Positions 1,294-54,600 of a stretch of 64,000 bases of DNA are shown here, piece by piece. Position numbers and translations under genes: made by a program. The DNA comes from Escherichia coli. GTDB taxonomy: Bacteria; Pseudomonadota; Gammaproteobacteria; Enterobacterales; Enterobacteriaceae. The notes beneath the pieces were generated by a model, which was not told the origin of the DNA, made no database searches, and was given only the letters and a program-made list of their open reading frames with translations. Location of the stretch: NCBI RefSeq assembly GCF_050320075.1, contig NZ_CP190018.1; one strand, given 5' to 3'. Position 1 is the stretch's first letter. Each line of letters begins with the position of its first letter.

Positions 1294-1569
1294 GTGGCTT
1301 CCATCTCCATCAGTTGTCCCTCCTGCTCAGCTACTGAAGGCGTGGTGCGTAACGGTAAAAGTACTGCCGGACATCAGCGCTATCTCTGCTCTCACTGCCG
1401 TAAAACATGGCAACTGCAGTTCACTTACACCGCTTCTCAACCCGGTACACACCAGAAAATCATTGATATGGCCATGAATGGTGTTGGATGCCGGGCAACC
1501 GCCCGCATTATGGGCGTTGGCCTCAACACGATTTTACGTCACTTAAAAAACTCAGGCCGCAGTCGGTAA
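1294..1569 (+). CDS. insA: IS1 InsA (transposition inhibitor/DNA-binding protein), GTG start
   Basis: 91-aa product [40 protein letters not shown]... with zinc-finger Cys pairs; A6C slippery motif AAAAAAC at 1545-1551 for programmed -1 frameshift into insB. Confidence 0.9.
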
Positions 1570-1991
1570 CCTCGCGCATACAGCCGGGCAGTGATGTGAT
1601 TGTCTGCGCTGAAATGGACGAACAGTGGGGCTACGTCGGTGCTAAATCACGTCAGCGCTGGCTGTTTTACGCGTATGACAGGATACGGAGGACGGTTGTG
1701 GCGCACGTCTTCGGTGAACGCACTCTGGCCACACTGGAGCGTCTTCTGAGCCTGCTGTCGGCCTTTGAGGTCGTGGTATGGATGACGGATGGCTGGCCGC
1801 TGTATGAATCCCGCCTGAAGGGAAAGCTGCACGTAATCAGCAAGCGTTACACTCAGCGCATTGAGCGACATAACCTGAATCTGAGACAACATCTGGCAAG
1901 GCTGGGACGGAAGTCACTGTCGTTCTCAAAATCGGTGGAGCTGCATGACAAAGTCATCGGGCATTATCTGAACATAAAACACTATCAGTAA
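1488..1991 (+). CDS. insB: IS1 InsB frame (transposase expressed as InsAB' fusion by -1 frameshift)
   Basis: 167-aa product [64 protein letters not shown]...; overlaps insA 3' end in -1 frame. Confidence 0.85.
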
Positions 1992-5440: not shown

Positions 5441-6388
5441 ATGCGTGTGTTATTGGCACCGATGGAGGGAGTGCTTGACTCTCTGGTGCGTGAATTGCTG
5501 ACCGAAGTTAACGACTACGATCTGTGCATCACCGAGTTTGTCCGCGTGGTGGATCAACTGCTGCCGGTAAAAGTCTTTCATCGCATTTGCCCTGAGCTAC
5601 AAAACGCCAGCCGGACACCATCTGGTACGCTGGTGCGCGTGCAGTTGTTAGGTCAGTTCCCACAATGGCTGGCAGAGAACGCCGCCCGTGCGGTGGAGTT
5701 AGGTTCCTGGGGCGTGGATCTCAATTGCGGCTGCCCGTCGAAAACGGTTAACGGTAGCGGCGGCGGGGCGACGTTACTCAAAGATCCTGAACTCATCTAC
5801 CAGGGTGCAAAAGCGATGCGTGAAGCTGTACCGGCGCATTTGCCCGTCAGCGTGAAAGTGCGTCTGGGCTGGGACAGCGGTGAGAAGAAATTTGAAATCG
5901 CCGATGCGGTTCAACAGGCTGGCGCTACGGAGCTGGTGGTGCATGGGCGGACGAAAGAGCAGGGTTACCGCGCGGAGCATATTGACTGGCAGGCGATTGG
6001 CGATATTCGCCAGCGGCTGAATATTCCGGTGATTGCCAACGGTGAAATCTGGGACTGGCAGAGCGCGCAACAATGCATGGCGATCAGCGGCTGCGACGCA
6101 GTGATGATTGGTCGCGGGGCGCTCAATATTCCCAACCTGAGCCGGGTGGTAAAATATAACGAACCGCGAATGCCGTGGCCGGAGGTGGTTGCTTTGCTGC
6201 AAAAATATACCCGTCTGGAAAAGCAGGGCGATACCGGGTTATATCACGTTGCGCGGATTAAACAGTGGTTGAGTTATTTGCGTAAAGAATACGATGAAGC
6301 AACGGAATTATTTCAGCATGTTCGGGTGTTGAATAATTCCCCTGATATTGCAAGGGCTATTCAGGCAATTGATATCGAGAAACTCTAA
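5441..6388 (+). CDS. dusC: tRNA-dihydrouridine(16) synthase DusC
   Basis: 315-aa product from ATG 5441 [33 protein letters not shown]... (FMN-dependent Dus fold); the longer ORF from 5375 is rejected as start. Confidence 0.9.
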
Positions 6389-6760
6389 AAAACCATAGTG
6401 ATGTTTTTTGACAATGTGTTAGCTCTTTATCAATAGGCCGCACGGTTGTTTGGTGGCGTCAAAATTGCCGAGGCGTTCCCTGAAGGCCGGGGCAGCCCAC
6501 ATGGATGTGGGCTGAGGGCGCGTTTTACAGGGATGTTACCTCGCGCCCGACCCGGTAGCCGTAAGGGATAAGCCGAGGGCACCGCGCAGCGGCGATTTTG
6601 TTCGCCAGAGCCCGGGGGTGCAGGGGGCGGCGGCGATTGGCCGCCCCCTGCGCGCTCCTTGCGCCAGTGATTATATGAAGCAATGCACATGACAGGAGCG
6701 CAACAGGATGAGAGACTGAAATATTCTCGTTATTTTCGGACCTGATGACATTAATTAATT

Positions 6761-6844
6761 TTAAAATATCATCTTAAATACGCCAGTCACCACCAGTAGC
6801 CCAATCAGGAAAATAATCAATACAGCCCAGAGTATAATTTTCAT
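6761..6844 (-). CDS. yohP: 27-aa small membrane protein YohP (not in supplied ORF track)
   Basis: Hand translation of reverse strand: MKIILWAVLIIFLIGLLVVTGVFKMIF, single hydrophobic helix, ATG 6842-6844, TAA stop. Confidence 0.75.
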   Translation of the reverse strand: MKIILWAVLIIFLIGLLVVTGVFKMIF

Positions 6845-7067
6845 TGGCGTTCCTTTATTTGTGAGTGCTGAATAAGTATAGGAAAAAACGAAGCCCTTTG
6901 CCGTTATCCATAAACGATTAAGATAAATCGGAAGATATCATTCACTTAGTGTATATTTTTCTGGATATGTCGTTTTATTGCCACTGATGTATTGCCACGC
7001 GAAACTAAAAAATATATCGCAACACACGGTAATCTCCGCGCACCTTTTCTTACCTGATTATTCCCCC

Positions 7068-8504
7068 ATGAATCGTGATTCCTTTTATCCAGCCATCGCC
7101 TGTTTTCCGCTGTTACTGATGCTGGCCGGGTGTGCGCCTATGCATGAAACCCGCCAGGCGTTAAGCCAGCAAACGCCCGCTGCACAAGTTGACACCGCAT
7201 TACCCACGGCGCTGAAAAATGGTTGGCCAGACAGCCAATGGTGGCTGGAGTATCACGATAATCAACTCACTTCCTTAATTAACAATGCACTACAGAACGC
7301 ACCGGATATGCAGGTGGCTGAACAGCGCATTCAGCTAGCTGAAGCCCAGGCGAAGGCAGTTGCCACTCAGGATGGTCCGCAGATCGACTTTTCGGCGGAT
7401 ATGGAGCGGCAAAAAATGTCGGCAGAAGGCTTAATGGGGCCGTTTGCTCTGAACGATCCGGCCGCAGGTACGACCGGCCCGTGGTACACCAACGGTACTT
7501 TTGGCTTAACGGCGGGCTGGCATCTCGATATCTGGGGAAAGAATCGGGCGGAGGTTACTGCCCGCCTGGGTACGGTTAAAGCACGGGCGGCGGAACGCGA
7601 GCAAACCCGCCAATTGCTGGCTGGCAGCGTAGCCCGCCTGTACTGGGAGTGGCAAACCCAGGCGGCGTTAAACACTGTCTTGCAGCAAATAGAAAAAGAG
7701 CAGAACACCATTATCGCGACCGATCGCCAGCTATATCAGAACGGGATTACTTCTTCAGTTGAAGGTGTGGAAACCGATATTAATGCCAGCAAAACCCGGC
7801 AGCAGCTCAACGATGTCGCGGGGAAAATGAAAATTATTGAGGCACGGTTAAGCGCACTTACAAATAACCAGACAAAGTCATTGAAGCTTAAACCGGTCGC
7901 GTTGCCGAAAGTGGCAAGCCAGCTTCCTGATGAACTGGGGTACTCCTTACTGGCCCGGCGGGCAGATTTGCAGGCGGCGCACTGGTACGTTGAGTCATCG
8001 CTAAGCACCATTGATGCGGCAAAAGCGGCATTTTATCCTGACATCAACCTGATGGCCTTCCTGCAACAGGATGCGTTGCACTTAAGCGATCTGTTCCGTC
8101 ATTCCGCGCAGCAAATGGGCGTTACGGCAGGCCTGACGCTACCCATTTTCGATAGTGGTCGTCTTAACGCCAATCTCGATATCGCAAAAGCCGAAAGCAA
8201 CTTGTCTATCGCCAGCTACAACAAAGCGGTGGTTGAAGCGGTGAATGACGTGGCGCGGGCAGCCAGTCAGGTTCAGACACTGGCGGAGAAAAACCAGCAT
8301 CAGGCGCAAATTGAGCGCGATGCCTTGCGTGTGGTAGGTCTTGCGCAGGCGCGCTTTAACGCGGGCATCATTGCGGGTTCCCGCGTCAGCGAAGCCAGAA
8401 TCCCCGCGCTGCGTGAGCGGGCCAATGGCCTGTTATTGCAAGGGCAGTGGCTGGATGCCTCCATTCAACTCACTGGTGCGTTGGGCGGGGGTTACAAACG
8501 CTGA
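7068..8504 (+). CDS. mdtQ: Outer-membrane efflux lipoprotein (OMF/TolC-like), intact
   Basis: ATG 7068 gives MNRDSFYPAIACFPLLLMLAGC lipobox signal followed by ~460 aa of coiled-coil/beta-barrel OMF sequence without interruption. Confidence 0.8.
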   Translation: MNRDSFYPAIACFPLLLMLAGCAPMHETRQALSQQTPAAQVDTALPTALKNGWPDSQWWLEYHDNQLTSLINNALQNAPDMQVAEQRIQLAEAQAKAVATQDGPQIDFSADMERQKMSAEGLMGPFALNDPAAGTTGPWYTNGTFGLTAGWHLDIWGKNRAEVTARLGTVKARAAEREQTRQLLAGSVARLYWEWQTQAALNTVLQQIEKEQNTIIATDRQLYQNGITSSVEGVETDINASKTRQQLNDVAGKMKIIEARLSALTNNQTKSLKLKPVALPKVASQLPDELGYSLLARRADLQAAHWYVESSLSTIDAAKAAFYPDINLMAFLQQDALHLSDLFRHSAQQMGVTAGLTLPIFDSGRLNANLDIAKAESNLSIASYNKAVVEAVNDVARAASQVQTLAEKNQHQAQIERDALRVVGLAQARFNAGIIAGSRVSEARIPALRERANGLLLQGQWLDASIQLTGALGGGYKR

Positions 8505-8556
8505 TGATATGCGCCTTCTATACTTAACGTTTATTCAGCGTTAAGTGGAGAACTCG

Positions 8557-9318
8557 ATGGCACAGGTTGCGATTATTACCGCCTCCGATTCGGGGATCGG
8601 CAAAGAGTGCGCGTTATTACTGGCGCAGCAGGGGTTTGATATTGGTATTACCTGGCACTCAGATGAAGAAGGGGCAAAAGATACCGCGCGTGAGGTAGTT
8701 AGCCACGGCGTACGTGCGGAGATCGTGCAGCTGGATCTCGGCAATCTACCAGAAGGGGCACTGGCGCTGGAGAAACTCATTCAACGGCTGGGGCGCATTG
8801 ATGTGCTGGTGAATAATGCGGGTGCAATGACCAAAGCGCCGTTTCTTGATATGGCTTTTGATGAGTGGCGCAAGATTTTTACCGTTGATGTCGATGGTGC
8901 ATTCTTATGCTCGCAAATTGCGGCTCGTCAGATGGTGAAACAAGGGCAGGGCGGTCGCATCATCAACATTACGTCGGTACATGAACATACGCCGCTGCCG
9001 GATGCCAGCGCCTACACAGCCGCTAAACATGCGCTCGGTGGGTTAACCAAAGCGATGGCGCTGGAGCTGGTCAGGCATAAGATTTTGGTGAACGCAGTCG
9101 CGCCTGGGGCGATCGCCACGCCAATGAATGGCATGGATGACAGCGACGTGAAGCCCGACGCGGAGCCTTCGATTCCCTTGCGGCGTTTTGGCGCAACGCA
9201 TGAGATTGCCAGCCTGGTGGTGTGGCTTTGTTCGGAGGGCGCAAATTACACCACCGGGCAGTCGTTGATAGTGGATGGCGGCTTTATGTTGGCGAATCCA
9301 CAGTTCAACCCAGAATAG
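8557..9318 (+). CDS. yohF: Short-chain dehydrogenase/reductase YohF
   Basis: MAQVAIITASDSGIGKE (TGxxxGIG Rossmann motif), NNAG, and YxxxK catalytic motif (YTAAKHAL); GGAG RBS upstream of ATG 8557. Confidence 0.9.
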   Translation: MAQVAIITASDSGIGKECALLLAQQGFDIGITWHSDEEGAKDTAREVVSHGVRAEIVQLDLGNLPEGALALEKLIQRLGRIDVLVNNAGAMTKAPFLDMAFDEWRKIFTVDVDGAFLCSQIAARQMVKQGQGGRIINITSVHEHTPLPDASAYTAAKHALGGLTKAMALELVRHKILVNAVAPGAIATPMNGMDDSDVKPDAEPSIPLRRFGATHEIASLVVWLCSEGANYTTGQSLIVDGGFMLANPQFNPE

Positions 9319-24728: not shown

Positions 24729-26729
24729 TCATCCTTGTTGCTGAAGCATGGGGAATAATTGTTCGCAAAGTAAAACACCGTTATTCATTGCTTCTACCCG
24801 TGCCTCGCTTTCTGTATTACGAAATTGTGCCAACACATGTGCCAGCCGATAAAAAACCACCGCGGTGAGGTCATTCGCCAGCAACTCTGCCTGACCAATA
24901 GCACTCTGTTCCTGATAGCGCCAGCCGTTATGGAGCAGTTGAATAAGTAACGCCTGGCAGCGCATCAGCAACTGATGAGCGGTAGACGGCACAGGCAAAA
25001 CGCTGGCAGAAGGTAGCGGTGCCACAGGCGCAGTTTCTGCGTCCAGCGCCCAGGCGCGGGTTTTGGTCATCATTACCCGTGGTTCCAGTGTCAATTGCCC
25101 CTCTACAAAGCTGACAAAGCCAGAAACCAGACTCACGGGGTCGTCTGTTTGTTGCAAAAGCGCCGCCATGCGTTCAACGGCAAAAGGAGAACAGGCAGAT
25201 GCCGGAAGGGATAACGTCAGCAGATTATCTTCACCTTCGCCGCTGATTACCTGCGCGTCCAGCGTCTGGCGGCTGCTATCCCAACCGAGTGAAATACACT
25301 CAGCGACTGGCAGAATAAATAAGTTATCCACCTGATTAAGAGGCCGTATGCAGGCGGGGGGACGCTGGCGTAAATATTCACGCAAAGCCACAATGCCCGG
25401 CTGGCGCAACGGCGCACTCAACATTTGCCAGGCGTCTGGCGACAGTGGAACAACACTACTCAAGCGGTTGCGGGTAGCTAACAGCAGCTCGCCATCGGCA
25501 CTGCGTTTTGCTGCTTGTGAAACAATTTGCCCACCAGCCAGTGCGCCAGCCTGAAAACTAAACAGCCGACGCGTCGCTGCCGGTGAGTTTTCCTGTTCGC
25601 TTCTCGGCCAACTACGCGAAAGATGCAAAATACTGCCGGTGTCGGGATCGGTAAACCAGATGCGTAAACCATACTGCTCAATATCCTGCCAGCAACGCAT
25701 ACCTAAAGACACCAGCCGCAGATGATCAAGCTTTGCTTCTCCGGCAATGCCAGCGCCAACGACCGTGCGCCACGGCATGGGAGGAACTTCACCAACACTG
25801 TCGCGCCGGGCCATCTCTTGTGCACAATTTAATCGATTGTTTAATGCCGCAAGCTGACGTAAGCATTCTCCGGCATGATAGTGGCTGGCGCGGGCGTGGA
25901 AGGCATCAACGCTGGCGCGCAGTTGCCGTAGCGATTCACTCACCCAGCGCCAGTTGCAGCGTTCCGCCGCTTGCTGCGCGCGGCTGAAAGCAGCCTCGTA
26001 ATGAATAAGCGGCTGGCTGATGCCGCCAAGCCATAACGCCTGGCTTAATTGCTGAACATATTGACGACACGCGTCCCCCTCATCGTTGGCAAACGGATCG
26101 TCAGATGATGTGACGTGTTCGCTGCGCATCTGCCAGATTAAATGAGTAAATTCCGCTTGCTGCGCTTTGGCCTGGACAAAGGCCTGTACTGCCAGTACGA
26201 CATGTTCGCAAAGTGTTCCTTCAATACAATCACAGCGAGCGAAACGAATGCTGCTGCGGGAATAAAAACGTACATCGCTCATCGGTAAGCGGGCAGAGGG
26301 AATTTCGCTCGGCGTACAGAACAACTCAATGGTGATGCCTTTAGCGACCAGTGCCTGTGCGCGTTTGCGGGTGGCATCGGGCAGGGTAGCCAGTTCTTCC
26401 AGCCAGATTGCCGGATCCCACTCTTCTTCTTTTTCCGTAGTCTGGGTGGTGGCGCAAAGTCGCTGATAACTTAAAACCAGCATCACGCGATGGCGGCACA
26501 TGCCGCTGGCCCCGCAGCTGCACTGAGCCTCTTTCAGTGCCTGACCGTTCGCCAGCTGGGTACGGACACCGTCACTGAAGGTGGCGATTAAAGCGCCGTT
26601 CTCATGGCTGATCTCCGGGACGTTGCCATTTTCCAGTTCCTTAAGACTGCGCTTAACAAAACCGGCATTGCTTAACGCTGTCAGGGCCTGCGGTGTCAGT
26701 TCTAATAATTCCGGACGTAGTGAATTCAT
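24729..26729 (-). CDS. yehQ: SWIM zinc-finger domain protein YehQ (two CxCx5CxH motifs)
   Basis: ATG 26727-26729 (MNSLRPELLELTPQ...); motifs CSCGASGMCRH and CDCIEGTLCEH seen in translation; start overlaps yehP stop (ATGA). Confidence 0.85.
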   Translation of the reverse strand: MNSLRPELLELTPQALTALSNAGFVKRSLKELENGNVPEISHENGALIATFSDGVRTQLANGQALKEAQCSCGASGMCRHRVMLVLSYQRLCATTQTTEKEEEWDPAIWLEELATLPDATRKRAQALVAKGITIELFCTPSEIPSARLPMSDVRFYSRSSIRFARCDCIEGTLCEHVVLAVQAFVQAKAQQAEFTHLIWQMRSEHVTSSDDPFANDEGDACRQYVQQLSQALWLGGISQPLIHYEAAFSRAQQAAERCNWRWVSESLRQLRASVDAFHARASHYHAGECLRQLAALNNRLNCAQEMARRDSVGEVPPMPWRTVVGAGIAGEAKLDHLRLVSLGMRCWQDIEQYGLRIWFTDPDTGSILHLSRSWPRSEQENSPAATRRLFSFQAGALAGGQIVSQAAKRSADGELLLATRNRLSSVVPLSPDAWQMLSAPLRQPGIVALREYLRQRPPACIRPLNQVDNLFILPVAECISLGWDSSRQTLDAQVISGEGEDNLLTLSLPASACSPFAVERMAALLQQTDDPVSLVSGFVSFVEGQLTLEPRVMMTKTRAWALDAETAPVAPLPSASVLPVPSTAHQLLMRCQALLIQLLHNGWRYQEQSAIGQAELLANDLTAVVFYRLAHVLAQFRNTESEARVEAMNNGVLLCEQLFPMLQQQG

Positions 26730-27862
26730 GACTGAAGATTCTCCGCAAGCCATGATGCCAGCTCGCCCGGTGTCATGGCGGCTATTTGTGCGCCGACATT
26801 AACCAGCGCCTGGGCCGTATCGTGGTCATAGCAAGGTGTTGCGGTGCTATCGAGCGCCGCCAGTCCCAGCACTTTGATGCCGCTCTGGACACACTTTTTC
26901 ACCTGATGCGTCAGTAATGATGATGAACCCCCTTCGTAAAAATCGCTCACGAGGATAATGACGCTTTTCGCTGGTTGTTCAATAAGTTGCCGACCATATT
27001 CCATGGCACTGGCGATATTGGTTCCGCCGCCTAATTGCACTTTCATTAATAACTCTACCGGATCGGCAACGTCTGCCGTGAGATCAACCACGCTGGTGTC
27101 AAACGCCACCAGATGGGTACGAATACCGGGTAACTGCCATAAACAGGCCGCCATCACCGCTGAGTGGATCACCGAGTCAACCATCGATCCGCTTTGATCA
27201 ACCAGTAAGACCAGTTGCCATTGATCGCTATGGCGCTTAATGCGGCTGTTAAAGCGGGGGGATTCGATATACAACTTGCCGTGTTGCGGATGCCAGTGTT
27301 GCAGGTTGGCACGCAGCGTACTTTTGAAATCGAAATTACGCGCCAGTGGAATAAATGAGCGACGGCGGCGATCGCGGACACCAGAAAAAGCCTGGCGAAC
27401 TTCCTTTGCCAGTCGCGCCATAATCTCTTCAACAACCTGGCGCACTATCCGGCGAGCGGCAGCCAGCACTTCGGGATTCATCAGATGTTTGGTGTGCAAA
27501 ACGGCGCGTAGCAGGCTTTCAGAAGGCTGCATACGTTCCAGTACGTCGAGATTCGTCACCACATCTTCAATGCCATAGCGCAGCACGGCATCGCTTTCCA
27601 GCCGCTCGATCACCTGTTGCGGAAACAGCGTGTGAATACTGTTGATCCACTCAGGGGTGGTGAGATTTGAGCAACCTAATCCACCGGAGCGTTCACCACG
27701 CTGGAGCCGTTCAGGATCGCGCCCATACAGCCACTCCAGCGCGTGGTCTATCTGCCGGGCATTGTCATCCAGCCCACAAAGGGTCGTTTCTGCCGCTTCG
27801 CCAAGAATTAATCGCCAGCGTTGTAGCTCACGGGTGGTCAGAAGATCGTTCAGTTCAGACAT
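26726..27862 (-). CDS. yehP: von Willebrand factor A (VWA) domain protein YehP
   Basis: ATG 27860-27862 (MSELNDLLTTRELQRW...); MIDAS motif DQSGS in LLVDQSGSMVDS; overlaps yehM stop by 8 bp. Confidence 0.85.
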   Translation of the reverse strand: MSELNDLLTTRELQRWRLILGEAAETTLCGLDDNARQIDHALEWLYGRDPERLQRGERSGGLGCSNLTTPEWINSIHTLFPQQVIERLESDAVLRYGIEDVVTNLDVLERMQPSESLLRAVLHTKHLMNPEVLAAARRIVRQVVEEIMARLAKEVRQAFSGVRDRRRRSFIPLARNFDFKSTLRANLQHWHPQHGKLYIESPRFNSRIKRHSDQWQLVLLVDQSGSMVDSVIHSAVMAACLWQLPGIRTHLVAFDTSVVDLTADVADPVELLMKVQLGGGTNIASAMEYGRQLIEQPAKSVIILVSDFYEGGSSSLLTHQVKKCVQSGIKVLGLAALDSTATPCYDHDTAQALVNVGAQIAAMTPGELASWLAENLQS

Positions 27863-30134
27863 GGAAAACTCCCCAGTGTTGCAGCGATGCCAGTGCCTGC
27901 TGTTCGAGTTGTTGATGATGTGCAATGGCTTGCGGTGGACAATGCAACGGCATTTGCAGTGCCGAAACGGGAAGTTGCGCCAGTTGATAATGCTCAAACA
28001 CCTGATGCGCCAGCGTCCCGCGTTCTCGTGGTGGTAGCCAGGCCATCGCCGCGCGTAAATCGGGCAGGGCGTTAATAAAATCGTCGTTACTCAGTTGATT
28101 TAAATGACTACTGAAACCGGCGATAAATGCCGGCTGACAGGCCAGTTGATGGCGGGCCAGCGCCAGCAAACCGTGCAGCGCTTCGCCGGATTGTGCCGGG
28201 GATAATTGCGCCAGCATTGTCAGCGCCGCTTCGGCACTGGCGTTGGGATGTTCCAGACGCATTAGTGCGCCAAGAGCCGCGCCGCGATCCAGCGCCGGGG
28301 CATGAATCGCCTGACTGCGGCGCTCCAGTAAGGCTACCGCCGCAGAAAGCGAAACGCCGGGTAAATTAACGCCGCTATGTAGATCGCGCAGGATATGGCA
28401 AAGCGCCTGCCAGCTATGCAGGTGAGCGTGAAACTCCTTTTCCTCCGGTTTGCCGTTGGATTCACACAGCCAGAGTGTGCGATCGATAGCCGCGCATAAC
28501 GTCGTCTGCAATATCTGCGCGCCTTGCATACCGCTGATTTCATCTAACCGCCATAAGGCATATAGCACTTCCAGCGCCTGGCCCATTTCGGCAAATTGAT
28601 TTTCCTGGGCGATTAATAATGTAAGTTGCTCCAGTAATTGTTGACTGAAAGACGCCAGACCCGCTAACGCCGCCTGGCTAAGACATGTGGTGATGATGCT
28701 GATTCCACCCGCGTCCAGCATATCGGCTTCTAATTTATGGCGTGCGGCTTCCTGGAGTGTGGCACCAAAGCAGGCGGCCTCAATCAATGCCGCATGCTGG
28801 CTAAGCGGGCGGGTTAATTTCCAGCATTCTTCACCGTTGCCTGCAAGTGACAGTGTACTTCCCTGCTGGCGCACAACCCCTGGGATCTCCAGTATTGCCA
28901 ACCGATGTAACACCTGACTTTGCGCCAGTCCATCGGGGGTAAAGCGATTTAAGGTAAGCTCCGCCGGAAGAGAGATTCCGGTACGTTCCAGTTCGCAGGT
29001 GACATCTTTTGGCAGAGGCGGTTGTGGCGTAGAAGGGGCAAGTTTACCGAATCCGTCACCCGCTAATGTGTCTATCAACGTTAGCAGAATCGGATCGGTA
29101 TCGGGATGAATAACGCCGCGATAGCTCCACGGCAACGGCGCGTTCAAGGCTTCTTTAATCAGCGAGCCTGCTATGGCATCCAGCCAGTCAGTGCGTAACG
29201 GTAGTGTATGACCGCGCAACTGTGCCAGCGCCATCGCATGCAGATGAGCGGCAGCCATATCAGCGGTAGAAGCGGGCAATTTGTGCTGGCGCAAACGGGT
29301 AAGGATAGTTTTTAGCAGTTGTTCACCGGCCTGCTGTAGGCCCCACTGCCAGCACCAGTTTTGCCAGACCGGGGCAGGCATACCAGAAAGGTATCCTGCC
29401 AGCACATCAAGGCGCTTTTCACTGTAGGGGGTGAGATAACAACCTGTAACGGCATCTGCCAGCTAGGGCAATTCCGGCGTGTTAATTTCCTGCGTGTATT
29501 CGCGCCACATCTTTGCCAGTGCCGGAGCATGCCAGCCGCCGCAGACGACTAACACGTCGCCATTGTTTTGCTGCATCGCCCATCCAATCCAGCGGGCCAT
29601 AAAGGCTTCGCGCTGACGATTGAGGGCATCTCCGGGGGAATCGCCCCGCAGTTGTGCAAAATAGTGCGCCAGCGCAGAGGGTAATGCAGTTTGCTGGCTT
29701 TCATCTTCGAACAAGTGATCCCACAGGGTGTCGCTGTTATCCATGCGGGTGGCACGCAGCAGTAAGGTCTGGCTGTCATCTTGCGTATCGGGTGATTCGT
29801 CTTCTTCTTCACTCTGCGCCCAGCAAGGCAAATCGATGAAGTAAGTTTGTGCCTGAATACGACGTGCGGCTTGTAGCGCCTGCCACTCCGGCGAAAATTC
29901 AGCAAATGGCGTCCAGGCACCACGCCCGGGGGCTGCACCGTCCTGATACTGGCAATAACTGTAAATAGCTACCGGAAGCTGGTGGGCTAAAAACAGTTCG
30001 TCTACCCGGTCATTAAAATCAGCCGGGCCTTCAATCAACACGTATCGTGGCCGCTGGCTTTCGATTAACGATTTCACCAGCCGGGCGCAGGCCGGACTAT
30101 GATGCCGGATGCCGACAATTAACGGCTCGCTCAT
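27855..30134 (-). pseudogene. yehM: yehM (759-codon frame) interrupted by a single in-frame TAG at 29463-29465
   Basis: ORFs 29463..30302 and 27855..29405 are in the same frame; codon-by-codon read gives ...INTPELP-stop-LADAVTGCYLTPYSEKRLDVLAGYLSGMPAP...; start MSEPLIVGIRHHSP at 30132-30134 with GAGGA RBS 10 bp after yehL stop. Confidence 0.75.
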
Positions 30135-30144
30135 GCATCTTTCC

Positions 30145-31222
30145 TCACGGCAGGCGGTGGCGGGCTTGATAATAAGCCTGCCAGTGAGCTTCTTTATGTG
30201 TGGCGACACGCTGTTCGAAGTAACGGCGCAGACGCGCGCGATCTTCTTCGTTATCTTTAACGATGGTTCCGGCAATACAGTCCACCAGATCGGCTGGCTC
30301 ACCTGCGCGATTCGCTAAAAACCAGGCGCGGACGCCCACTGCGTGGGCCACGTTCACGGCTTCAGCGGTGGATATAATTGCCGTCAGAGTATCCATTGAC
30401 GTTTTCTTTTCGCCGTTGGCACGCAGATCGCGGAAGGTGCGGACCAGTAACTCCAGTACCGCGTCAGGCACTTTATGCGGAATACCGCTATGGGCCAGCA
30501 AACGCGCCGAAGCACTGGCGACCAGTTCCAGCTCCTGGGCGAAATCCATAATCGGAAAGACGGTTTCAAAATCGAAGCGACGCTTTAGCGCGGCACTCAT
30601 CTCATTGACGCCGCGATCGCGGGTATTGGCAGTGGCAATAATATTAAAGCCTTCCCGCGCATAGAGCTGACTGGCTTCACCGGTGAGTTCCGGCACCGTC
30701 ATCACCCTGTCAGAAAGCATACCTAACAGACAGTCTTGTACTTCCAGCGGTGTACGCGTTATCTCTTCAAAACGGACGATTTTGCCGTCGCGCATTCCCT
30801 GGTAAAGCGGGGCAGGGACCAGTGCTTCCGTAGACGGACCATGGTTGATAAGCAGGGCGTAGTTCCATTTGATCTTCAGTAGTAGATGCGCCGCCCTGGA
30901 TGGTTAACCCGGCATCGCCGCTAATAGCGGTTGCCAGTAATTCAGACAGGAGAGATTTTGCGGTGCCCGGTTCCCCCACCAACATCAAACCGCGCCCGGT
31001 GGCAAGAGTGACTAACATACGTTCGACAGCGGAGGGACTAATCACCACTTTACGGCTAATATTTTGCGCGCTATCGCCAAGGATAAAAGCACGGGCCGCA
31101 GGCAAACTTAACTGCCAACCGGGCGGGCAAGGTGCGTTATCATTTTGTTTTAATTTTGCCAGTTCATCGGCGTATAACACAGCAGCAGGCGGACGCTGCA
31201 GATGATTATTCTGCGGTGACAT
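30145..31222 (-). pseudogene. yehL: yehL, MoxR-type AAA+ ATPase, split by a frameshift into two overlapping frames
   Basis: N-terminal frame ([12 protein letters not shown]...Walker [11 protein letters not shown]...GGASTTEDQ) ends at 30767; C-terminal part (…[41 protein letters not shown]…ATANTRD…) is in another frame bounded upstream by a stop at 30904-30906; total span 1078 nt is not a multiple of 3. Confidence 0.75.
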
Positions 31223-31338
31223 ATATTCATCCCTGAAATGTATTAATGAAATAAACGATATTTTACGCGCAATAAATGTTTGGCGCATTAGTTGTTTGAG
31301 CGAAAAATATCTGGAAAGCAGATCACAGTAAATAAAAA

Positions 31339-31365
31339 AACCTGCTGGTGAGGCAGGTTCTTTTA
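31339..31365 (-). terminator. Hairpin flanked by A7 (left) and T4 (right); reads as strong intrinsic terminator for minus-strand transcripts
   Basis: AAAAAAACCTGCTGGTGAGGCAGGTTCTTTT; rc gives stem followed by U7. Confidence 0.5.
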
Positions 31366-31445
31366 TTTACTATTTTCAGGCCCAACACCGCAGCCTGTGC
31401 AACATCGTGTTCCAACGAACGAATTATAACCATCGGTGGACCCCG

Positions 31446-31473
31446 TTGCAATTAAGATAATGAGATTTATAAT
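31446..31473 (+). promoter_or_regulatory. Candidate sigma70 promoter TTGCAA-N16-TATAAT upstream of small ORF
   Basis: -35 TTGCAA at 31446-31451, -10 TATAAT at 31468-31473, 16-bp spacer. Confidence 0.4.
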
Positions 31474-31654
31474 CCAGACGGTTGGGACGTTGCGCCGGAT
31501 CGGACCAATTTTAAGTCCTGGCTACCGGACGGGTGGTGCTGCAGGTGGTGCCCTGATCCGGAGTGCAACATCGTGGTCCAACATACGTAAACCAGTATCG
31601 ACAGGCAGTGTAAGGGTAAGGTGCTGGTGTTGCGCTCCTTAATAAGGAGAGCGG

Positions 31655-31744
31655 ATGGACACGCTGACACAAAAGTTAACCGTGCTCATTGCCGTACTGG
31701 AGCTATTAGTGGCTCTGTTACGGTTGATTGATTTGTTGAAGTAA
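31655..31744 (+). CDS. Candidate 29-aa small hydrophobic/amphipathic protein (unnamed; not in ORF track)
   Basis: AAGGAGA Shine-Dalgarno 7 nt upstream of ATG 31655; translation MDTLTQKLTVLIAVLELLVALLRLIDLLK; followed by hairpin terminator. Confidence 0.35.
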   Translation: MDTLTQKLTVLIAVLELLVALLRLIDLLK

Positions 31745-31765
31745 TGGGCAAATTGAAACGCATCT

Positions 31766-31790
31766 AAGGGGGAATACCGTTTCCCCCTTT
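31766..31790 (+). terminator. Hairpin AAGGGGGAATACCGTTTCCCCCTTT after the small ORF and immediately beyond yehK stop
   Basis: 7-bp G/C stem, then TTT AATAAA. Confidence 0.4.
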
Positions 31791-31797
31791 AATAAAG

Positions 31798-32118
31798 CTA
31801 TTTTTCTATTTCTTGGTTGAATATATTCTGTAGTTCGGGATTAAAAATGGCTATTACCGTTTCTGGTGATTCGCCCCGTAATTTTCGCTCATCAATAAAC
31901 TCATCTCTTATATAAATCAACGCATCATTTATTAGCGGGTCGACATCCTCTCGATCACGTTGATGAAATGTTGGATGTAGCCGGAATCGCTCCAGTCGGT
32001 AGACGGAACCTGTAAATAATTCAGAGCATTTATGGATCTCAAGTCTGAAGGAAAACGGATCTTCAGGTACAGGGACCTCATAATCGTAAATAGCAACCAG
32101 CTCTTTTTGCACGATCAT
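31798..32118 (-). CDS. yehK: Uncharacterised small protein YehK
   Basis: 106-aa ORF MIVQKELVAIYDYEVPVPEDPFSFRLEIHKCSELFTGSVYRLERF...; ATG verified. Confidence 0.85.
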   Translation of the reverse strand: MIVQKELVAIYDYEVPVPEDPFSFRLEIHKCSELFTGSVYRLERFRLHPTFHQRDREDVDPLINDALIYIRDEFIDERKLRGESPETVIAIFNPELQNIFNQEIEK

Positions 32119-32178
32119 CGCTTTTCCCGGTGGCAGGTCGTGTTAATAACGGGCAGTCGCATCACTGCCCGCTGTGTT

Positions 32179-35100
32179 TTAATGGAAAATGACGTCGGGT
32201 GCGCTTAACGCTTCACTCAAATCAAACACATCAAGTTCGGCAAAAGTGACAGATTTATTGTCACGGTATACATGAAGAGAACGGAAGCTCATTAGCGCTT
32301 TGCTATCAACATTGTAGTGGTTAAAACCGGATGAAAACTTAAGGACCAGCCGGTACTCGCCCAGGTCATAGACAAATGCATTCTCATAGCCTGACTCCCA
32401 GCCTTTGTATCGCATTCCCATAAGTTGCCCAACGGTAGCAGATTTACCTTCCCAGCGATTCAAACTATTACTGGCTGACTCGTCAGGCGTGAGCAGTACT
32501 GTGCGCCGTGCCAATTGGCGAAAAGGCGGCATAATTTCGTAATCGGCAAAAAGCTGTGCAAACTCACTGCGCATTTCTGCTGCCATTTCTAACGGGTGGG
32601 CAATGCCAATCAGAGCATCGGCAGGCAGGTCAATTGGCTCATCTTGCTCATTGCAGAACTCCCCCTCAGCGGCCACACGAAAGGCGTTGAGTAAACGACG
32701 CGGTTCATTTGCCGGATAAACACCCCATATTAATCGCTGAGTAACCAGACGGGTAAAGGGATGATTAACAAACAGAGAATGAAAATCTGCCAGCGACCAG
32801 CGTCGGGTGGTGCGCAGGGCAGTTTCAAGACGCGGGAGCAGGTTTTTGCTCACCTGAGTGGCATCTTTTTTTAGCCCTTTTAGTCGGGCCAGTGCCTCGG
32901 GTGCTTTCAGTTGATCGTCATCGGCGCGCAACCGGGGAACGCTTTTCTGGCGAACGTTTTGCTGATCAAAGATAACCGGGTTAAGGTTTTCATCGAAGCG
33001 AACGGTAAATTGCCGTGGACCAAAATCAAAAATCAACGCCTGCGGATCATCAAGACCCAGTGTTGGGACTAATCTGTCCGCTAACTGTTCCTGGCTTAGC
33101 CCTCGATTTTCTGCGACCACCTGAAGAAATTCCGCCGCGTTATCACGTAAGGGGCGGGATTTCGCCCGTTGCGATATATGATGCAGCTGTATCAGTGCCA
33201 TATCATTATTCATCTGAGTAAGTATGTTCAGGCCGCTGACGGCACGGGCAGATTTGCCTTCCTGTGGCCAGGCAAGGATCTGTGTCGTCAGATCCCGTGC
33301 CGTGCTTTCGTCGCCAAAGAGACTTAACGCCAGAAATGCCCAGTTGTCTTTTGCGGGAGCACCAGCTTGTTGCCACGCGGTGAAAAGATCCCAGGCAAAA
33401 GCTGCCAGCGTTTGCGGCTGGCAGAAAGTTTTCAGTTGTTCCAGTCCGCTATAAAAACGTCCGCCCTGGGTAAAGCGCAGCATTTCGCCGATAATTTCCA
33501 GTGCGTCATCGGTAACAGGCTGATTATTCGTGATAAGGCGCGGCCTGGACCACATTGCCGGCTGCCAGAAATCAGGGGCTTTTGGAATGCGTGTCGGGTA
33601 AATCTCTATTGGACTCTGTTTAAGTAAATGCTCCAGGGCAGGCCATACATCTGTACGCTGCCAGCGGTTTGCCGCGGTTTGCAGCAATTCACCATGTCCC
33701 TGTTCGTAAAGTAAACGTAGGGCAAGTAATGCAGCTTCGCTATTATCGCTGGATTTGGTGAAGACAAGAGGGATAAGTGCAGTAGCCGTATGTTCCGGCC
33801 ATTGTAAAATCCACTGGCGAGCCAGATCACGCTGCGCCGCGAAACGTCGCCAGACGCGGGCAACGGGCAGGGCCAGTTCTGTTGCGCCAAAATTTAAAAT
33901 TAACGGAAATGTTTCTTTTGGACGATATGAAAAAGCCAACAGCAGACCTGGTAGAGCATCCAATCCGAAGATACTGAGAAAATAGTCCTCACCCGCGAAC
34001 AGATGCTTTTTCTCATTGATACGTAGCCAGAAAGTCAAAGCTATCTCACGCGGCAACTGTGCCAATAAATACAGGTTCCAGATACTCTTTTCCCGACGAT
34101 AGCGTGAGTAGCTGTCATTTTCCCATATGTTAATTAACACTTCTACGTGACCGCTGCGAAGCGCCTGTTCTGCTAATTGTGCTTCCGGGGAGTTCCAGCC
34201 ATTCAGGATCTCTTCAACCCGCCCCTGGTAGTAATGCCACTGAACAATGAGTGAATTGCGTGCAGCATCCAGTTTTCCGGGGAGTATATAATTCAGAAAC
34301 AGCCATACATCATCTCCAAAACCCAGCTCCTGTAGTACAACTCGTCCACTTTTATGTTCCATGCGTTCCGCAAGAGATTCCGTGCTGAAATAACGGGCAG
34401 ACTCAGTGGCGGCAAGCCTCTCTCGTTCGCCTGGTTGCCAGTAAACTTGCGGCGTTAATTCGAACGGTGCCAAATCAAGACGTGGAACTGTCATTTTTTT
34501 CTTACTACGCCACGGTGGTGAAACGAGGATTTCAGGCATTTGGCTGTTATCGGTGCTATCAATAACCGTTTTAGGCGGTGCCGATAAATAACTATTCAGC
34601 ACTGACCGGGCTTGAGTACTTAACCACGGCATCACCTCTTCTGCCAGTTGTGGCTGCGATGCCATCAGCGTTTGTAACAGCGTACGCCAGTATTCATCAC
34701 GTGCTTTTTGCTGTGCAGGCAGCTTTTTGTCTTCGATGATTGGATAACCAGGGCGCGTAGGTGGTTCTTTTAGCGCCAGCAGTTCTGCCAGTGCGGCAAG
34801 CGTCGCATGGGGGAAATTTTTACTGTATTTAGCTACACGTTGCAGGCTGGGTTTGTTTTTATCAGCAACTAACAGCAGGGTGCGGATGACCTGCGGATGG
34901 TTAATTTGTACCAGCAGACTGCCGCAATCTTCTTTATGGGCATACATTGCCAGGCGTGGAACGGCTGCCAGTCCTTGTTCGCGCAAAAGGGCAGCGCAGG
35001 CCGCGTAGCCGAAGTGGTTTTCATGCGACATGTAGCTGGCTTCCCGATCGCTAAATATATCCTGGCTCCAGTAGCGTTCGAGTTTTCTCACCGCTCTGGG

Positions 35101-35811
35101 GTCAATAGCAACAACTTTTAACCACTCCTTAGAATGAAAATGAGTCCACGGGCATTCAAGGCTTACCAACTCATTGGCGATTTCTGGTTTTTCCGGGAGG
35201 ATCAGAGCAATAAAAGGGCGGCGAACTTTGGTTATTCCTGGCAGTGCGGCAATGAGTTTGTCGGCGCAACGCTGCCAGCTGCTTTCCTCTGCCAGAGAGA
35301 GATGCTTACGCAGTCGGAGATCGAATTCGTTATAGGTTTCTGATCGATAACCATAGCCATAATCCTCGTTCTGATACTGCAATGTCACTAGCAGAGGATC
35401 ACTTTCATAACATCGTGTAATAAACTGGCGTGCAATCACCACCTCAGTCGCATATTCCAGTCCCTCTTGTTGGACGATTTCGTCGAGCAACTGTTGGCTA
35501 TCATTTTGCGCGATACAGGCTAGCGCCGCCATTGTCCGGGCCGGAACTGAGGGTTTGTGTTCGCCAATCAAGTTGATGGCCTGCGTAATGGCCGACTGCC
35601 ACTCCAGTGAAAAATTTTCATAACGCCAGACAATGTTTTTTTTCTTCTCAGCTTTTTGTAGCAATTCATCACCCAGTGTCTGGATGAGGCTTTCAGTGAT
35701 AACAGGCACCGGTTCGCCCGGCCAACTGCGATGGCTGAGCGGCGTTTTGCCTTTTTTATATTTCAGTTCCACTTGGGCGTTATCCGCCAGCCACGGTAAT
35801 TCCTTGTCCAT
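32179..35811 (-). CDS. yehI: Giant MolR-family protein YehI (1210 aa, DUF4132-like, no N-terminal WGR domain)
   Basis: MDKELPWLADNAQVELKYKKGK...; shares blocks with the two upstream paralogues (RKHLSLAEES.WQ.C..KLIAA.P, LDFGPRQFTV, RLIWGVY, LFADYE..PPFRQL); ATG 9 bp downstream of preceding gene stop. Confidence 0.9.
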   Translation of the reverse strand: MDKELPWLADNAQVELKYKKGKTPLSHRSWPGEPVPVITESLIQTLGDELLQKAEKKKNIVWRYENFSLEWQSAITQAINLIGEHKPSVPARTMAALACIAQNDSQQLLDEIVQQEGLEYATEVVIARQFITRCYESDPLLVTLQYQNEDYGYGYRSETYNEFDLRLRKHLSLAEESSWQRCADKLIAALPGITKVRRPFIALILPEKPEIANELVSLECPWTHFHSKEWLKVVAIDPRAVRKLERYWSQDIFSDREASYMSHENHFGYAACAALLREQGLAAVPRLAMYAHKEDCGSLLVQINHPQVIRTLLLVADKNKPSLQRVAKYSKNFPHATLAALAELLALKEPPTRPGYPIIEDKKLPAQQKARDEYWRTLLQTLMASQPQLAEEVMPWLSTQARSVLNSYLSAPPKTVIDSTDNSQMPEILVSPPWRSKKKMTVPRLDLAPFELTPQVYWQPGERERLAATESARYFSTESLAERMEHKSGRVVLQELGFGDDVWLFLNYILPGKLDAARNSLIVQWHYYQGRVEEILNGWNSPEAQLAEQALRSGHVEVLINIWENDSYSRYRREKSIWNLYLLAQLPREIALTFWLRINEKKHLFAGEDYFLSIFGLDALPGLLLAFSYRPKETFPLILNFGATELALPVARVWRRFAAQRDLARQWILQWPEHTATALIPLVFTKSSDNSEAALLALRLLYEQGHGELLQTAANRWQRTDVWPALEHLLKQSPIEIYPTRIPKAPDFWQPAMWSRPRLITNNQPVTDDALEIIGEMLRFTQGGRFYSGLEQLKTFCQPQTLAAFAWDLFTAWQQAGAPAKDNWAFLALSLFGDESTARDLTTQILAWPQEGKSARAVSGLNILTQMNNDMALIQLHHISQRAKSRPLRDNAAEFLQVVAENRGLSQEQLADRLVPTLGLDDPQALIFDFGPRQFTVRFDENLNPVIFDQQNVRQKSVPRLRADDDQLKAPEALARLKGLKKDATQVSKNLLPRLETALRTTRRWSLADFHSLFVNHPFTRLVTQRLIWGVYPANEPRRLLNAFRVAAEGEFCNEQDEPIDLPADALIGIAHPLEMAAEMRSEFAQLFADYEIMPPFRQLARRTVLLTPDESASNSLNRWEGKSATVGQLMGMRYKGWESGYENAFVYDLGEYRLVLKFSSGFNHYNVDSKALMSFRSLHVYRDNKSVTFAELDVFDLSEALSAPDVIFH

Positions 35812-35820
35812 GCTCTTTCC

Positions 35821-38800
35821 TTATTCAAACAGGGCTTCAATATCGTTAATGAGTTCGCTGGCGGTGATGTCGTCGAGCACGGAGAACTGCGCTTCCTGAG
35901 TTGAATTACTCCCCCAGCCATAGCTTTCCGCTTTGCCTTCCCATAGCCACAGCTTGCTTAAGACCTGCTCAGCGCTAAGATCGGCTGGTGACATACCCAC
36001 CGCAAAACCTTCGTCGATTTCCATGATTAACGACCAGCGACCGAGAGGTTTGATCATCCATCCGATCCAGCCTCCATCCTGTGGTTCGCCCTTTATCCAG
36101 CCTTTATTTGCCAGCCCCATGACCCGGCCGCTCGGGCATTTTCTGCCTGCCCAGCGGGTCAGTTCGCTGGCGTTGCGCTCGGCTTCTGTCAGGGCGTAAC
36201 TGTTACGTTCAAGCTGACGGAACGGTGGTAGCAGTTCGTAGTCGGCAAAAAGCTGACCAAAGGCGACAGCATCCGTCGGTGATATTTCCAGAACGTGAGG
36301 AATGCCAACAGAGATATCGCCTTCCTGCAAGGTGAAAAGATCATCGTCAGCGGTGCTGTAGCTGTTATCTTCCGCCACCCTAAAGCACGCCTGTAGCTGG
36401 TTTTCGGCGCTATAAACGCCCCAAATCAGACGGCGGGTTAAGTGACGAACCAGCGGATGCTCAACCAGGAAGAGCTGAAAGTTTTCCGGCGACCAGCGGC
36501 GGCGCAGGCACATGGCGGATTCCAGCCTTGCTACCTGCTGGGCGGCGACGGTACGCGCATCTTTTTTCAGCAATTTGTAGCGGTTAACAGCATCGTTTGC
36601 CTGTGATTCATCATCGCTTTTATTGGGTTTAGGTAAGTCTTTCAGGCGGCTGCCGGAAACATCGCGCACAAACGGTTTTAAGGTTTCATCAAAGCTGACG
36701 GTGAACTGCCGTGGGCCAAAATCCAGCAGCAGCGAACCGTTATCATCCAGACCGAGAGCCGGTGCTAACCGATCTTCAAGCTCCGCTACCGTCAGTTCGC
36801 GACTTTCGGCAATGTCGGCAATTTTCTCTTTCGCCCGCTCCTGTAATGCTTTGAATTTCAGTTTCTGGGCAATGCCGTTAAGCTGCATCAGGGCGATATC
36901 ACTACTGATAGCGGCGAGGATATCCAGCCCGACGGTGGCGCGTTTATGCTGGGATTCACCAGGCCAGGCGCGTATTAATGGCGTCAGTTTGCGGGCGGTG
37001 TCATCGTTACCGAGAACGCCTAACGCAGTGAACGCCCAACTCTCTTTCGACGGCGCGCCAGCGGTCTGCCAGGCGGTAAACAGATCCCAGGCAAATTCAG
37101 CCAGTGAGTCGGCGGTACAGGCATCTTTCACCTGCAATAATCCCGGATACAGCGCCTCCTCCTGATGGAAGCGGAGCATTTCACCGAGGTGCTGGAGTGC
37201 GCTATCGGGCAGTGATTGGGCATTTGCTTTTAATACCGGGCGGGTCCAGATCGATGGCTGATAAAAGGCCGGAAGAGTGGGGATTTTTGTCGGGTGATTA
37301 TCTAAGGGATCGAGCGCAAGCATAGCGTTCACCGCATCTGTTACTTCCGGCTGGTTATAACGCCGGGCGATTTCTTGCAGTAATGGTTGATGACCGTTTT
37401 CGGTAAGCATACGCAATGCAGCGCGGGCGTTATCCTGTGCTTCACCGGCTTTGCCGAGCGCCGCAGACAGCAGGCCGGTAATGGCGTGTTCCGGGTATTT
37501 CAGCAGCCAGGTGCGGGCGTCTTGTCGTAGGGTTTTGAGTTTGTTGAAGGCGCGGGCGACGGCAGGTGCCAGCTCACTCGCTGCGAAGTAATTCGTTATG
37601 GGCAAGGCTTCCTGTGGATAGCGTGCAAGTGAGTTTACTAACCCAGGTAATCCTTTGAGTCCAAAATGTAACATGGCGTATTCGGTATCGGTATGCGGAG
37701 ATAGAGTAAGGGCATTCCATGCTCTTACTGCTTTCTCCAGCGGCAATGTTGTCAAAATCCCCAAATGCCAATAATGCCCGGTAGGTGAATGAAACACCTT
37801 AAATTCACTTATTAAAGTTGAATAATCTTCATTTAGCCATGCCTCAACTACCGCTTCGGGAGCTTTAATATATGTACCAGCGATCCGTCGTTGAAAACCC
37901 ATCCTTGCCAACAGATTGGCAGTACTTTCTTCATGACTAACCGTGATGTGTTTTGAATACCAGATATATTTCGCCAAAAGTTGATTACTGATTTCTTCTG
38001 TCAGATAACTGATTGGCTCAATACCTAATGGTGCTAAATCAAGCACTGGAATCGGCGATTTTTTCTTTTTCGAAAGCCATGGTGGGGAGACTACTATGGC
38101 CGGCAGTAGATCGGCGCTGGCATGGTTTGAGGGCTGTGTCAGTTGTTGCTGGCATGATTTCAGCACTGCAACTGCGGGTGTCGAAAGCCAGGGAATGACC
38201 TGTTCTGCTAGTGTCGGTTGCGAGATAAGCATCGTCATTAGCATAATGCGCCAACTATTCTCTTCTTTTTGCACTAGAAGTTCCGCCAGTGCTGCCAGTG
38301 CTGCGTGTGGGAACGCAGCGCAGGCTTTCGTCATTCGATCGTGACAGCGTTTAGTATGCCCTGCTACACGTATAAGCAGTGTTAATGCGAACGGATGATT
38401 GATATGACGCAACACATCGGCGCAGTAGTCACTTGCGACATAGGGAGCAAATCGGGGCAGGGCCGCAACACCTTGCTCCTGTAATACGGTGGCTGACCAT
38501 ATCGCACCACAATAGTAATCATCAAAAATGGCATATGGCTCGTGATATTTTTCTAATGAGGCAAGAATGTGCTCATCAGTCGCCACTATTTTTAGCCACT
38601 CCAGCGAGGGTAATTTCTTTTGCCCCAGTAGACGCTGGGCAATTTCATGTGCAATTTCTGGTTTTTCGGGCAATAACAAAGCAATTAATGGTTGCCGCCA
38701 TTCTGGAATATGTGGAACTGCGGCAATAAGTTTTTGTGCACATTTTTGCCAGAGAGACTCTTCCGCCAGTGATAAATGTTTACGTAGGCGTAATTCAAAG

Positions 38801-39615: not shown

Positions 39616-39627
39616 TGCAAAGTCCTT

Positions 39628-43425: not shown

Positions 43426-43520
43426 TCTGCATCCCTGTAATTTTATCCAGTTGAATGCTGATGCTACCAGTATTTATGCGGGTTAGAGAGAGACAAAATC
43501 GCAAGAAAACAACTTTAGGA

Positions 43521-43554
43521 ATTTATAAAGAAAAGGCGCTGTCGATACAGCGCC
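43521..43554 (-). terminator. Intrinsic terminator of metG
   Basis: GGCGCTGT-CGAT-ACAGCGCC hairpin followed on minus strand by T-rich tract. Confidence 0.5.
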
Positions 43555-43565
43555 TTGAAAGGAGA

Positions 43566-45599: not shown

Positions 45600-45730
45600 A
45601 GTAGGCATTACTTCTTAATAGTGAAAAGGGGTTAGATAGTACCAAATGGAAAAATGTTAAGTAAGTACTTCTCTATATTCTTCAGGTAAACTATCAGCTG
45701 ATGGTTTATCTATACAAAAAAGGAGTCGGG

Positions 45731-54469: not shown

Positions 54470-54600
54470 ATCAAACGACTCGGGGTGCCCTTCTGCGTGA
54501 AGGCTGAGAAATACCCGTATCACCTGATCTGGATAATGCCAGCGTAGGGAAGTCACGGACCACCAGGTCATTGCTTCTTCACGTTATGGCAGGAGCAAAC
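54470..54600 (+). promoter_or_regulatory. TPP (thiamine pyrophosphate) riboswitch, thiM leader
   Basis: Conserved THI-box elements GGGGTGCCC...CTGAGA...ACCTGATCTGGATAATGCCAGCGTAGGGAA immediately upstream of thiM RBS. Confidence 0.8.

Follow-up and report, generated by a model that had tools for sequence, protein, structure and literature searches.

An intact allele of mdtQ, the gene for a predicted NodT-type outer-membrane efflux channel, in a non-K-12 strain of Escherichia coli

The window analysed here, the whole stretch of 64,000 nucleotides of E. coli DNA, carries a gene that is almost certainly mdtQ in its intact, wild-type form. [quoted passage not shown] That this identification holds and that the gene also specifies a functional channel is, taken jointly, very probable. 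The gene and its immediate surroundings are as follows.

6761 to 6844, minus strand: yohP, a small membrane protein gene, divergent neighbour and not an efflux component (coordinates transferred from RefSeq; ATG at complement 6842–6844)
6845 to 7067, no strand assigned: AT-rich divergent yohP/mdtQ intergenic region, presumed to hold promoter and leader (from the sequence)
7068 to 8504, plus strand: mdtQ (formerly yohG), intact coding sequence (ORF and translation, NCBIfam NF008524, RefSeq-identical DNA, gap-free alignment with orthologues)
8557 to 9318, plus strand: yohF, an SDR oxidoreductase gene, not an efflux component (100% identical to K-12 yohF; annotations)

The mdtQ frame spans 1437 nt and runs from an ATG through 478 sense codons to a TGA stop; the uninterrupted frame of about 478 codons described in the earlier note was borne out, with exact coordinates, by the ORF analysis, the RefSeq annotation and the orthologues. 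Read mechanically, the open frame reaches further upstream, to a TTG at 6978, which would give a product of 508 residues. This start was rejected: RefSeq starts the gene on identical DNA at the ATG at 7068; the orthologues of Salmonella, Citrobacter and E. albertii begin at the same methionine (MNRNS... in Salmonella and Citrobacter); and E. coli ETEC1730 carries a 14-bp deletion over 6976–6989. On these three grounds we take 7068 to be the real start of mdtQ.

The identity of the product was assessed with profile models. The NCBIfam equivalog model for MdtQ (NF008524) matched over its entire length (1–478 of 478) with 1024.4 bits, against a cut-off of 650. The protein also passed the outer_NodT model TIGR01845 (274 bits, cut-off 210), and the Pfam OEP family (PF02321) matched it in two stretches with an E-value of 1.7e-30. 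It scored below the cut-offs of the models for MdtP, CusC-type proteins, AdeK, AdeC, TdeA and TolC; for MdtP the score was 356 bits, under the cut-off of 597, and the protein is thus not an MdtP. At the DNA level, positions 6900–8600 match strain YZLc1-3 with 100% identity, and the annotation of that strain gives an intact mdtQ here (WP_001078139.1). The MdtQ of non-K-12 E. coli (YohG; WP_001078139.1, and UniProt Q8X659 in O157:H7) is the product of the same gene, with the same length and flanking genes, and the window allele differs from other E. coli mdtQ alleles by at most about 3% of nucleotides, the changes being mostly synonymous.

The features of the protein are given below, with positions on the DNA.

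7068 to 7133, plus strand: lipoprotein signal peptide, residues 1–22 (direct reading of the sequence)
7122 to 7133, plus strand: lipobox L19-A20-G21-C22 (direct reading of the sequence)
7272 to 7865, plus strand: first OEP repeat, residues 69–266 (best PF02321 stretch and secondary structure of the AlphaFold2 model)
7941 to 8480, plus strand: second OEP repeat, about residues 292–471 (two Pfam stretches; boundaries from the secondary structure of the model)

The N-terminus of MdtQ reads MNRDSFYPAIACFPLLLMLAG/CAPMHE, with a basic R3 and a hydrophobic core followed by the L-A-G-C lipobox. In an alignment of 128 homologues of 25–94% identity, Cys22 is one of only six invariant columns, in agreement with the lipobox signal peptide described in the earlier note; Cys22 is predicted to be the acylated first residue of the mature protein. 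A match of this quality to the MdtQ model, together with the two OEP repeats, is far beyond what chance would produce. The residue at position +2 is Ala, hence there is no Asp signal for retention in the inner membrane.

A structural model was calculated with AlphaFold2 from the alignment of 128 sequences (mean pLDDT 90.2, pTM 0.86). The first OEP repeat is modelled with beta-strands at residues 105–116 and 139–153 and long helices at 158–224 and 230–265, and the second with beta-strands at 325–336 and 348–357 and long helices at 365–431 and 437–471. The resulting four beta-strands and four long helices make up the canonical OMF protomer, and MdtQ is predicted with high confidence to take this fold. 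When the model was compared with the PDB by Foldseek, the top matches were all OMFs (VceC, CmeC, CusC, OprM, OprN, OprJ, SilC, TOprJ1 and MtrE), with E-values of about 1e-20 to 1e-23 and TM-scores of 0.77–0.89 on the target; the probability was 1.00 for VceC, CmeC, CusC, OprM, OprN, OprJ, SilC and MtrE. Among solved structures, VceC of Vibrio cholerae (PDB 1yc9) was the best match both by fold (E-value 2e-23, TM-score 0.87 on the target) and by sequence (E-value 1e-39); it comes from a different genus and is only 26% identical. VceC is the OMF of the MFS-type VceAB pump, and vceC is linked to vceAB, whereas no pump gene is linked to mdtQ. After the other OMFs came TolC of E. coli (PDB 1ek9; E-value about 1e-14, 12–14% identity). 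It belongs to the same superfamily and has the same overall trimeric channel-tunnel architecture, which for MdtQ is predicted. Unlike MdtQ with its lipobox cysteine, TolC is no lipoprotein.

By analogy with the biology of OprM, CusC, VceC and TolC, the MdtQ precursor would be exported via Sec, acylated at Cys22 and cleaved by signal peptidase II. As for other members of the family, the lipoprotein would then be sorted to the outer membrane by Lol and assemble into a trimer, in which each protomer would contribute four strands to a 12-stranded beta-barrel and four long helices to a periplasmic alpha-helical tunnel. The tip of this tunnel may dock on the hairpins of the periplasmic adaptor of an inner-membrane transporter, and the complex would thereby gain an exit duct across the outer membrane.

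The gene order dusC-yohP-mdtQ-yohF-yohD-yohC-pbpG is that of MG1655 and other E. coli, and dusC-yohP-mdtQ-yohF-yohD marks an orthologous chromosomal position shared with MG1655, EPI300 and YZLc1-3. At 53–56%, the GC content of mdtQ resembles that of the adjoining genes, and the locus is free of mobile-element features; a foreign origin of mdtQ was rejected on these grounds. On the same strand, yohF starts 52 nt downstream of mdtQ. No adaptor or pump gene adjoins mdtQ, its neighbours being yohP and yohF, and mdtQ is an orphan OMF gene, as a 2025 review on TolC also calls it (PMC11762307). The tolC gene likewise has no adjoining pump genes, and the partner of MdtQ, as of any such orphan, has to be encoded elsewhere.

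The integrity and conservation of the gene were assessed against its orthologues. Full-length orthologues of 478–479 residues, also named MdtQ, share 94% identity with the window protein in E. albertii, 82% in Salmonella enterica and 80–82% in Citrobacter, and residues 1–478 of the window protein align with them with zero internal gaps; this alignment with intact orthologues showed no internal deletion, stop or frameshift in the window gene. Over nine diverse intact E. coli alleles the mean dN/dS was 0.084, with pairwise dS values relative to the window allele of up to 0.097. Because dN/dS is about 0.08, the data indicate that mdtQ is under strong purifying selection. Given that there is no internal lesion, that dN/dS is this low and that the OMF fold is confidently predicted, a functional OMF is plausible, which lends support to what the earlier note had put forward as a possibility. 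The 2025 review relates that mdtP and mdtQ null mutants of E. coli were more susceptible to puromycin, acriflavine and tetraphenylarsonium (PMC11762307). If the background of these mutants was K-12, in which the gene is already frameshifted, it is doubtful that the phenotype can be attributed to the loss of full-length MdtQ. The susceptibility of the yohG and mdtP null mutants was reportedly studied by Sulavik et al. in 2001.

The distribution of intact and defective copies among 5426 genomes was estimated from exact-allele counts and two evenly spaced samples. In 55 of 60 evenly spaced genomes (about 92%), searched with the coding sequence only, mdtQ spanned 1437 nt. The remaining five were three strains with a span of 1436 nt (AML002_ev01, GB2005 and T142A, which are suggested to be K-12 derivatives), strain A8, and one with a truncated gene (STEC379). 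All nine of the inspected 1701-nt loci carried an annotated intact mdtQ. The lesions themselves are diverse: in A8 the G5 run at 8483–8487 is one base short, which alters the C-terminus and gives a product of 491 residues; ETEC1730 has a 1-bp deletion at the equivalent of 7912, and its mdtQ is flagged frameshifted; and in-frame deletion variants of 435, 454 and 420 residues are on record, visibly unlike the window protein. Premature stops have been described in mdtQ of some Salmonella Typhi and Paratyphi A (PMC9241588).

These several independent inactivations, in E. coli (K-12, ETEC1730, A8, the deletion variants and STEC379) and in Salmonella, are in line with a gene that is intact in sequence yet silent or cryptic, that is, poorly expressed and without measurable contribution, the time for decay having been too short. 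So is the dispensability of mdtQ, as K-12 grows without the protein. Moreover, there is no canonical ribosome-binding site upstream of the ATG (no GGAG-type Shine-Dalgarno sequence within 20 nt), a consensus scan of 6350–8700 for promoters and terminators gave no more sites than shuffled sequence, and the review describes the mdtQ promoter as lacking experimental confirmation and the function of MdtQ as not elucidated (PMC11762307). However, a dN/dS of about 0.08 at dS values of up to about 0.1 within E. coli is unlike that of unselected sequence, full-length orthologues have been kept at 80–94% identity across four genera, and about 92% of the sampled genomes have exactly the expected gene length. 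We thus consider a silent mdtQ unlikely, and a functional outer-membrane channel remains the preferred reading.

The class of pump served by MdtQ was approached through the genomic context of its relatives. Within E. coli, MdtP is the nearest paralogue, with 35% identity over 466 residues; it shares the lipobox and the architecture of the NodT subfamily. While mdtQ is an orphan, mdtP is co-operonic with the genes for the adaptor MdtN and the FUSC-family MdtO; the operon ytcA-mdtN-mdtO-mdtP specifies, in this order, the YtcA lipoprotein, an HlyD-type adaptor, a FUSC-family membrane protein and the OMF. Further relatives were searched among 1.84 billion representative proteins, and the nearest non-orthologous ones with a readable context were taken. 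Within the set of 35–42% identity, three (P0127, P0128 and P0129) each end an operon of YtcA, AaeA-like adaptor, FUSC protein and OMF, and in a fourth (P0125) the OMF gene follows a FUSC gene at the end of its operon. The neighbours of another relative (P0131) are an MFS gene and the gene for an EmrA-like adaptor. Two relatives are located on contigs of only about 2 kb: P0121 is followed only by an SDR gene, which resembles the mdtQ-yohF junction, and P0126 has a TetR regulator beside it, which says little about partners. From the operon contexts of the relatives and of MdtP, MdtQ can tentatively be assigned to the branch of OMFs working with pumps of the FUSC(PET) or MFS type. As a hypothesis only, its partners would be adaptors of the AaeA/EmrA/MdtN type rather than those of RND pumps; we regard this partner class as possible, with some leaning against it.

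In principle, MdtQ could instead stand in for TolC as the exit duct of RND pumps that depend on it, AcrAB among them. The overall fold of the predicted model is shared with the RND-associated OprM, CmeC, CusC and MtrE (TM-scores of 0.77–0.85), and the gene owes its name 'mdt' (multidrug transport) to drug-susceptibility phenotypes that have been reported (PMC11762307). On the other side, the nearest relatives and the closest paralogue are found with FUSC/MFS transporters and AaeA/EmrA-type adaptors and not with RND genes, the best solved match is VceC, the OMF of an MFS pump, and TolC is a far more distant match (E-value about 1e-14, 12–14% identity). Overall, a role as RND duct appears quite improbable.

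Within the FUSC/MFS assignment one more specific pairing can be named. A survey in Chemical Reviews gives the FUSC-type pump of E. coli as 'AaeAB-?', that is, with no assigned outer-membrane partner (PMC8277102). The nearest relatives of MdtQ are the OMFs of operons with AaeA-like adaptors and FUSC proteins, and its closest paralogue is the MdtP of mdtNOP. This leads to the suggestion that MdtQ might be the missing outer-membrane partner of a pump without assigned exit duct, most plausibly AaeAB, although we consider it a long shot. If true, the pairing would have been missed by K-12-based efflux genetics because the K-12 allele is frameshifted.

The K-12 allele was compared with the window allele by pairwise alignment with the gene of K-12 and its derivative EPI300, which located the following feature.

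7211 to 7215, plus strand: A5 homopolymer run, codons 48–50 (pairwise alignment with the EPI300/K-12 gene)

In MG1655, mdtQ (b2139, 2227323–2228758, 1436 nt) is typed 'pseudogene', and in EPI300 and an O16:H48 strain it is flagged 'frameshifted'. The K-12 locus is orthologous, has the same neighbours and is 99.7–99.8% identical in nucleotides to the window gene. Its sole lesion is one A missing from the A5 run (A4); the remaining three differences, at 7676, 8375 and 8492, are synonymous changes in third codon positions. The frame shifts at codon 50 and meets a stop 19 codons later; beyond the lesion, the amino-acid sequence of the window protein is still encoded without change, in the other frame. 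Hence no channel can be made from the K-12 gene, whereas the window copy is unbroken, with A5 at 7211–7215 and not the A4 that defines a pseudogene of the K-12 type. The alignments with the K-12 pseudogene and with intact orthologues proposed in the earlier note were thus carried out, and they revealed neither an internal deletion in the window copy nor an intact K-12 gene. The annotation of mdtQ as a pseudogene in K-12, which the earlier note had stated, proved correct (MG1655 b2139, the EPI300 flag and the 1-bp deletion in the A5 run), and the A5 allele and the three synonymous differences uphold the conclusion that an intact copy points to a lineage other than K-12.

Among the complete E. 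coli genomes that matched at this site, an exact 61-mer with the A5 allele was found in 4585 of 5407, and the exact 60-mer with the K-12 A4 allele in 355. All 60 A4 carriers among those listed are K-12 laboratory strains or derivatives (among them MG1655, C600, J53, DH5alpha, DH1, RR1, NCM3722, AG100 and evolved lines), and four further sampled carriers are also laboratory strains. A miscount in sequencing or assembly, to which homopolymer runs are prone on some platforms, is extremely improbable as the source of the A5/A4 difference because the alleles follow lineage cleanly, with A5 in 4585 independently assembled complete genomes and A4 in 355 assemblies, of which all 60 among those listed are K-12 derivatives including MG1655. 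Judged from these genomes, an intact mdtQ is the norm of the species and the broken copy of K-12 the exception; the single-base deletion in the A5 run is, on the sequence evidence, what cost K-12 the protein, and it marks the K-12 laboratory lineage.

The remainder of the window points in the same direction. Its identity to MG1655 is 93.5–98.5%, three segments are inserted or replaced relative to that strain, and positions 26000–46000 are 100% identical to natural isolates, for instance YZLc1-3, Ec-U3 and C1; the isolates identical over this part came from chicken, human, cow and swan. An intact mdtQ excludes K-12 but carries no finer information on lineage, because it is the normal state in about 92% of the sampled E. 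coli.

That mdtQ is intact outside K-12 is already known: RefSeq routinely annotates the intact gene, and the 2025 review counts mdtQ among the conserved genes of the E. coli core genome, its label as a pseudogene notwithstanding, and compares the O157:H7 protein Q8X659 structurally with TolC (PMC11762307). The finding matters little beyond bookkeeping; it bears out the origin of the window from a natural E. coli outside the K-12 lineage. The 'pseudogene' label of mdtQ in K-12 reflects a lesion of the laboratory lineage and not a property of the species, and efflux studies in K-12 only cannot reveal the role of MdtQ. The right background for work on the partner and substrates of MdtQ is a strain with the window allele, or K-12 repaired to A5.

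Lesions in mdtQ are not confined to K-12, and independent ones are present in other E. coli lineages. The ETEC1730 copy is frameshifted at the site that corresponds to 7912 and has, in addition, a 14-bp upstream deletion. In strain A8, loss of 1 bp from a G5 run has rewritten the C-terminus, yielding a protein of 491 aa that is still annotated as intact. In-frame deletions of 43, 24 and 58 residues were also observed, and the 435-aa form was found on 43 contigs; the variant proteins include P0014, P0004 and P0025.

The interval on the yohP side of mdtQ contains the following element:

6432-6704, GC-rich repeat in the dusC-yohP gap, the equivalent of TRIP1c by position

TRIP1c has been located 43 bp beyond the dusC stop and 363 bp ahead of the mdtQ start (PMC10888264). 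In some genomes, chromosomal rearrangements between TRIP1 copies join mdtQ (as yohG) to other loci (PMC10888264). An 86-aa open reading frame at 6430-6690 (-) is an artefact of the TRIP1c-like GC-rich repeat. In strain YZLc1-3 (locus positions 1697-2394) an IS1 element sits between dusC and yohP, extending over the last part of dusC. No such IS1 is present in the window, to which the YZLc1-3 genome is otherwise identical; the window therefore derives from a close relative and not from YZLc1-3 itself.

The opposite pattern to that of mdtQ, which is broken in K-12 and intact here, was seen for two other genes:

27855-31222, minus strand, yehL and yehM homologues, both disrupted in this strain and intact in K-12

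Codon 224 of the yehM homologue (about 29463-29465) is an in-frame stop, and yehL is frameshifted because it is 11 nt shorter than K-12 yehL. RefSeq flags the identical YZLc1-3 DNA of this region as 'internal stop' and 'frameshifted'. Between yehL and yehK there is an Rfam match (31334-31409, minus strand, 101 bits) to OrzO-P, an antitoxin RNA from a type I toxin-antitoxin system; it is adjoined by some 284 bp without K-12 match (31515-31798). In the yeiS-preT gap (852-2006), about 1.15 kb stands in place of 176 bp of K-12 sequence, and the 3' end of yeiS is unlike that of K-12. These and further features are:

1488-1991, plus strand, 167-aa open reading frame inside the yeiS-preT replacement segment
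62453-63208, plus strand, fbaB-gatY segment without K-12 counterpart
62596-63105, plus strand, 169-aa open reading frame within the fbaB-gatY segment
10872-10952, plus strand, Peptidase-S11 leader motif upstream of pbpG, an expected cis-regulatory RNA
54471-54567, plus strand, TPP riboswitch upstream of thiM, likewise expected

Within the fbaB-gatY segment, the Hfq-binding sRNA STnc490 gave a full-length Rfam match at 62514-62637 (144 bits).

Three large tandem DUF4132 paralogues, every one intact, lie on the minus strand of the window:

32179-35811, minus strand, yehI, DUF4132 paralogue, 1210 aa
35821-39615, minus strand, WGR+DUF4132 gene, 1264 aa
39628-43425, minus strand, third DUF4132 paralogue, 1265 aa

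K-12, in contrast, has only yehI, the yehH pseudogene and yehF in the equivalent of this array. Over its initial 197 nt, K-12 yehF matches 43425-43229; its remainder matches 39604-38793 (84%). Because the two parts match different paralogues of the window, the K-12 arrangement looks as if recombination between paralogues had deleted about 3.6 kb.
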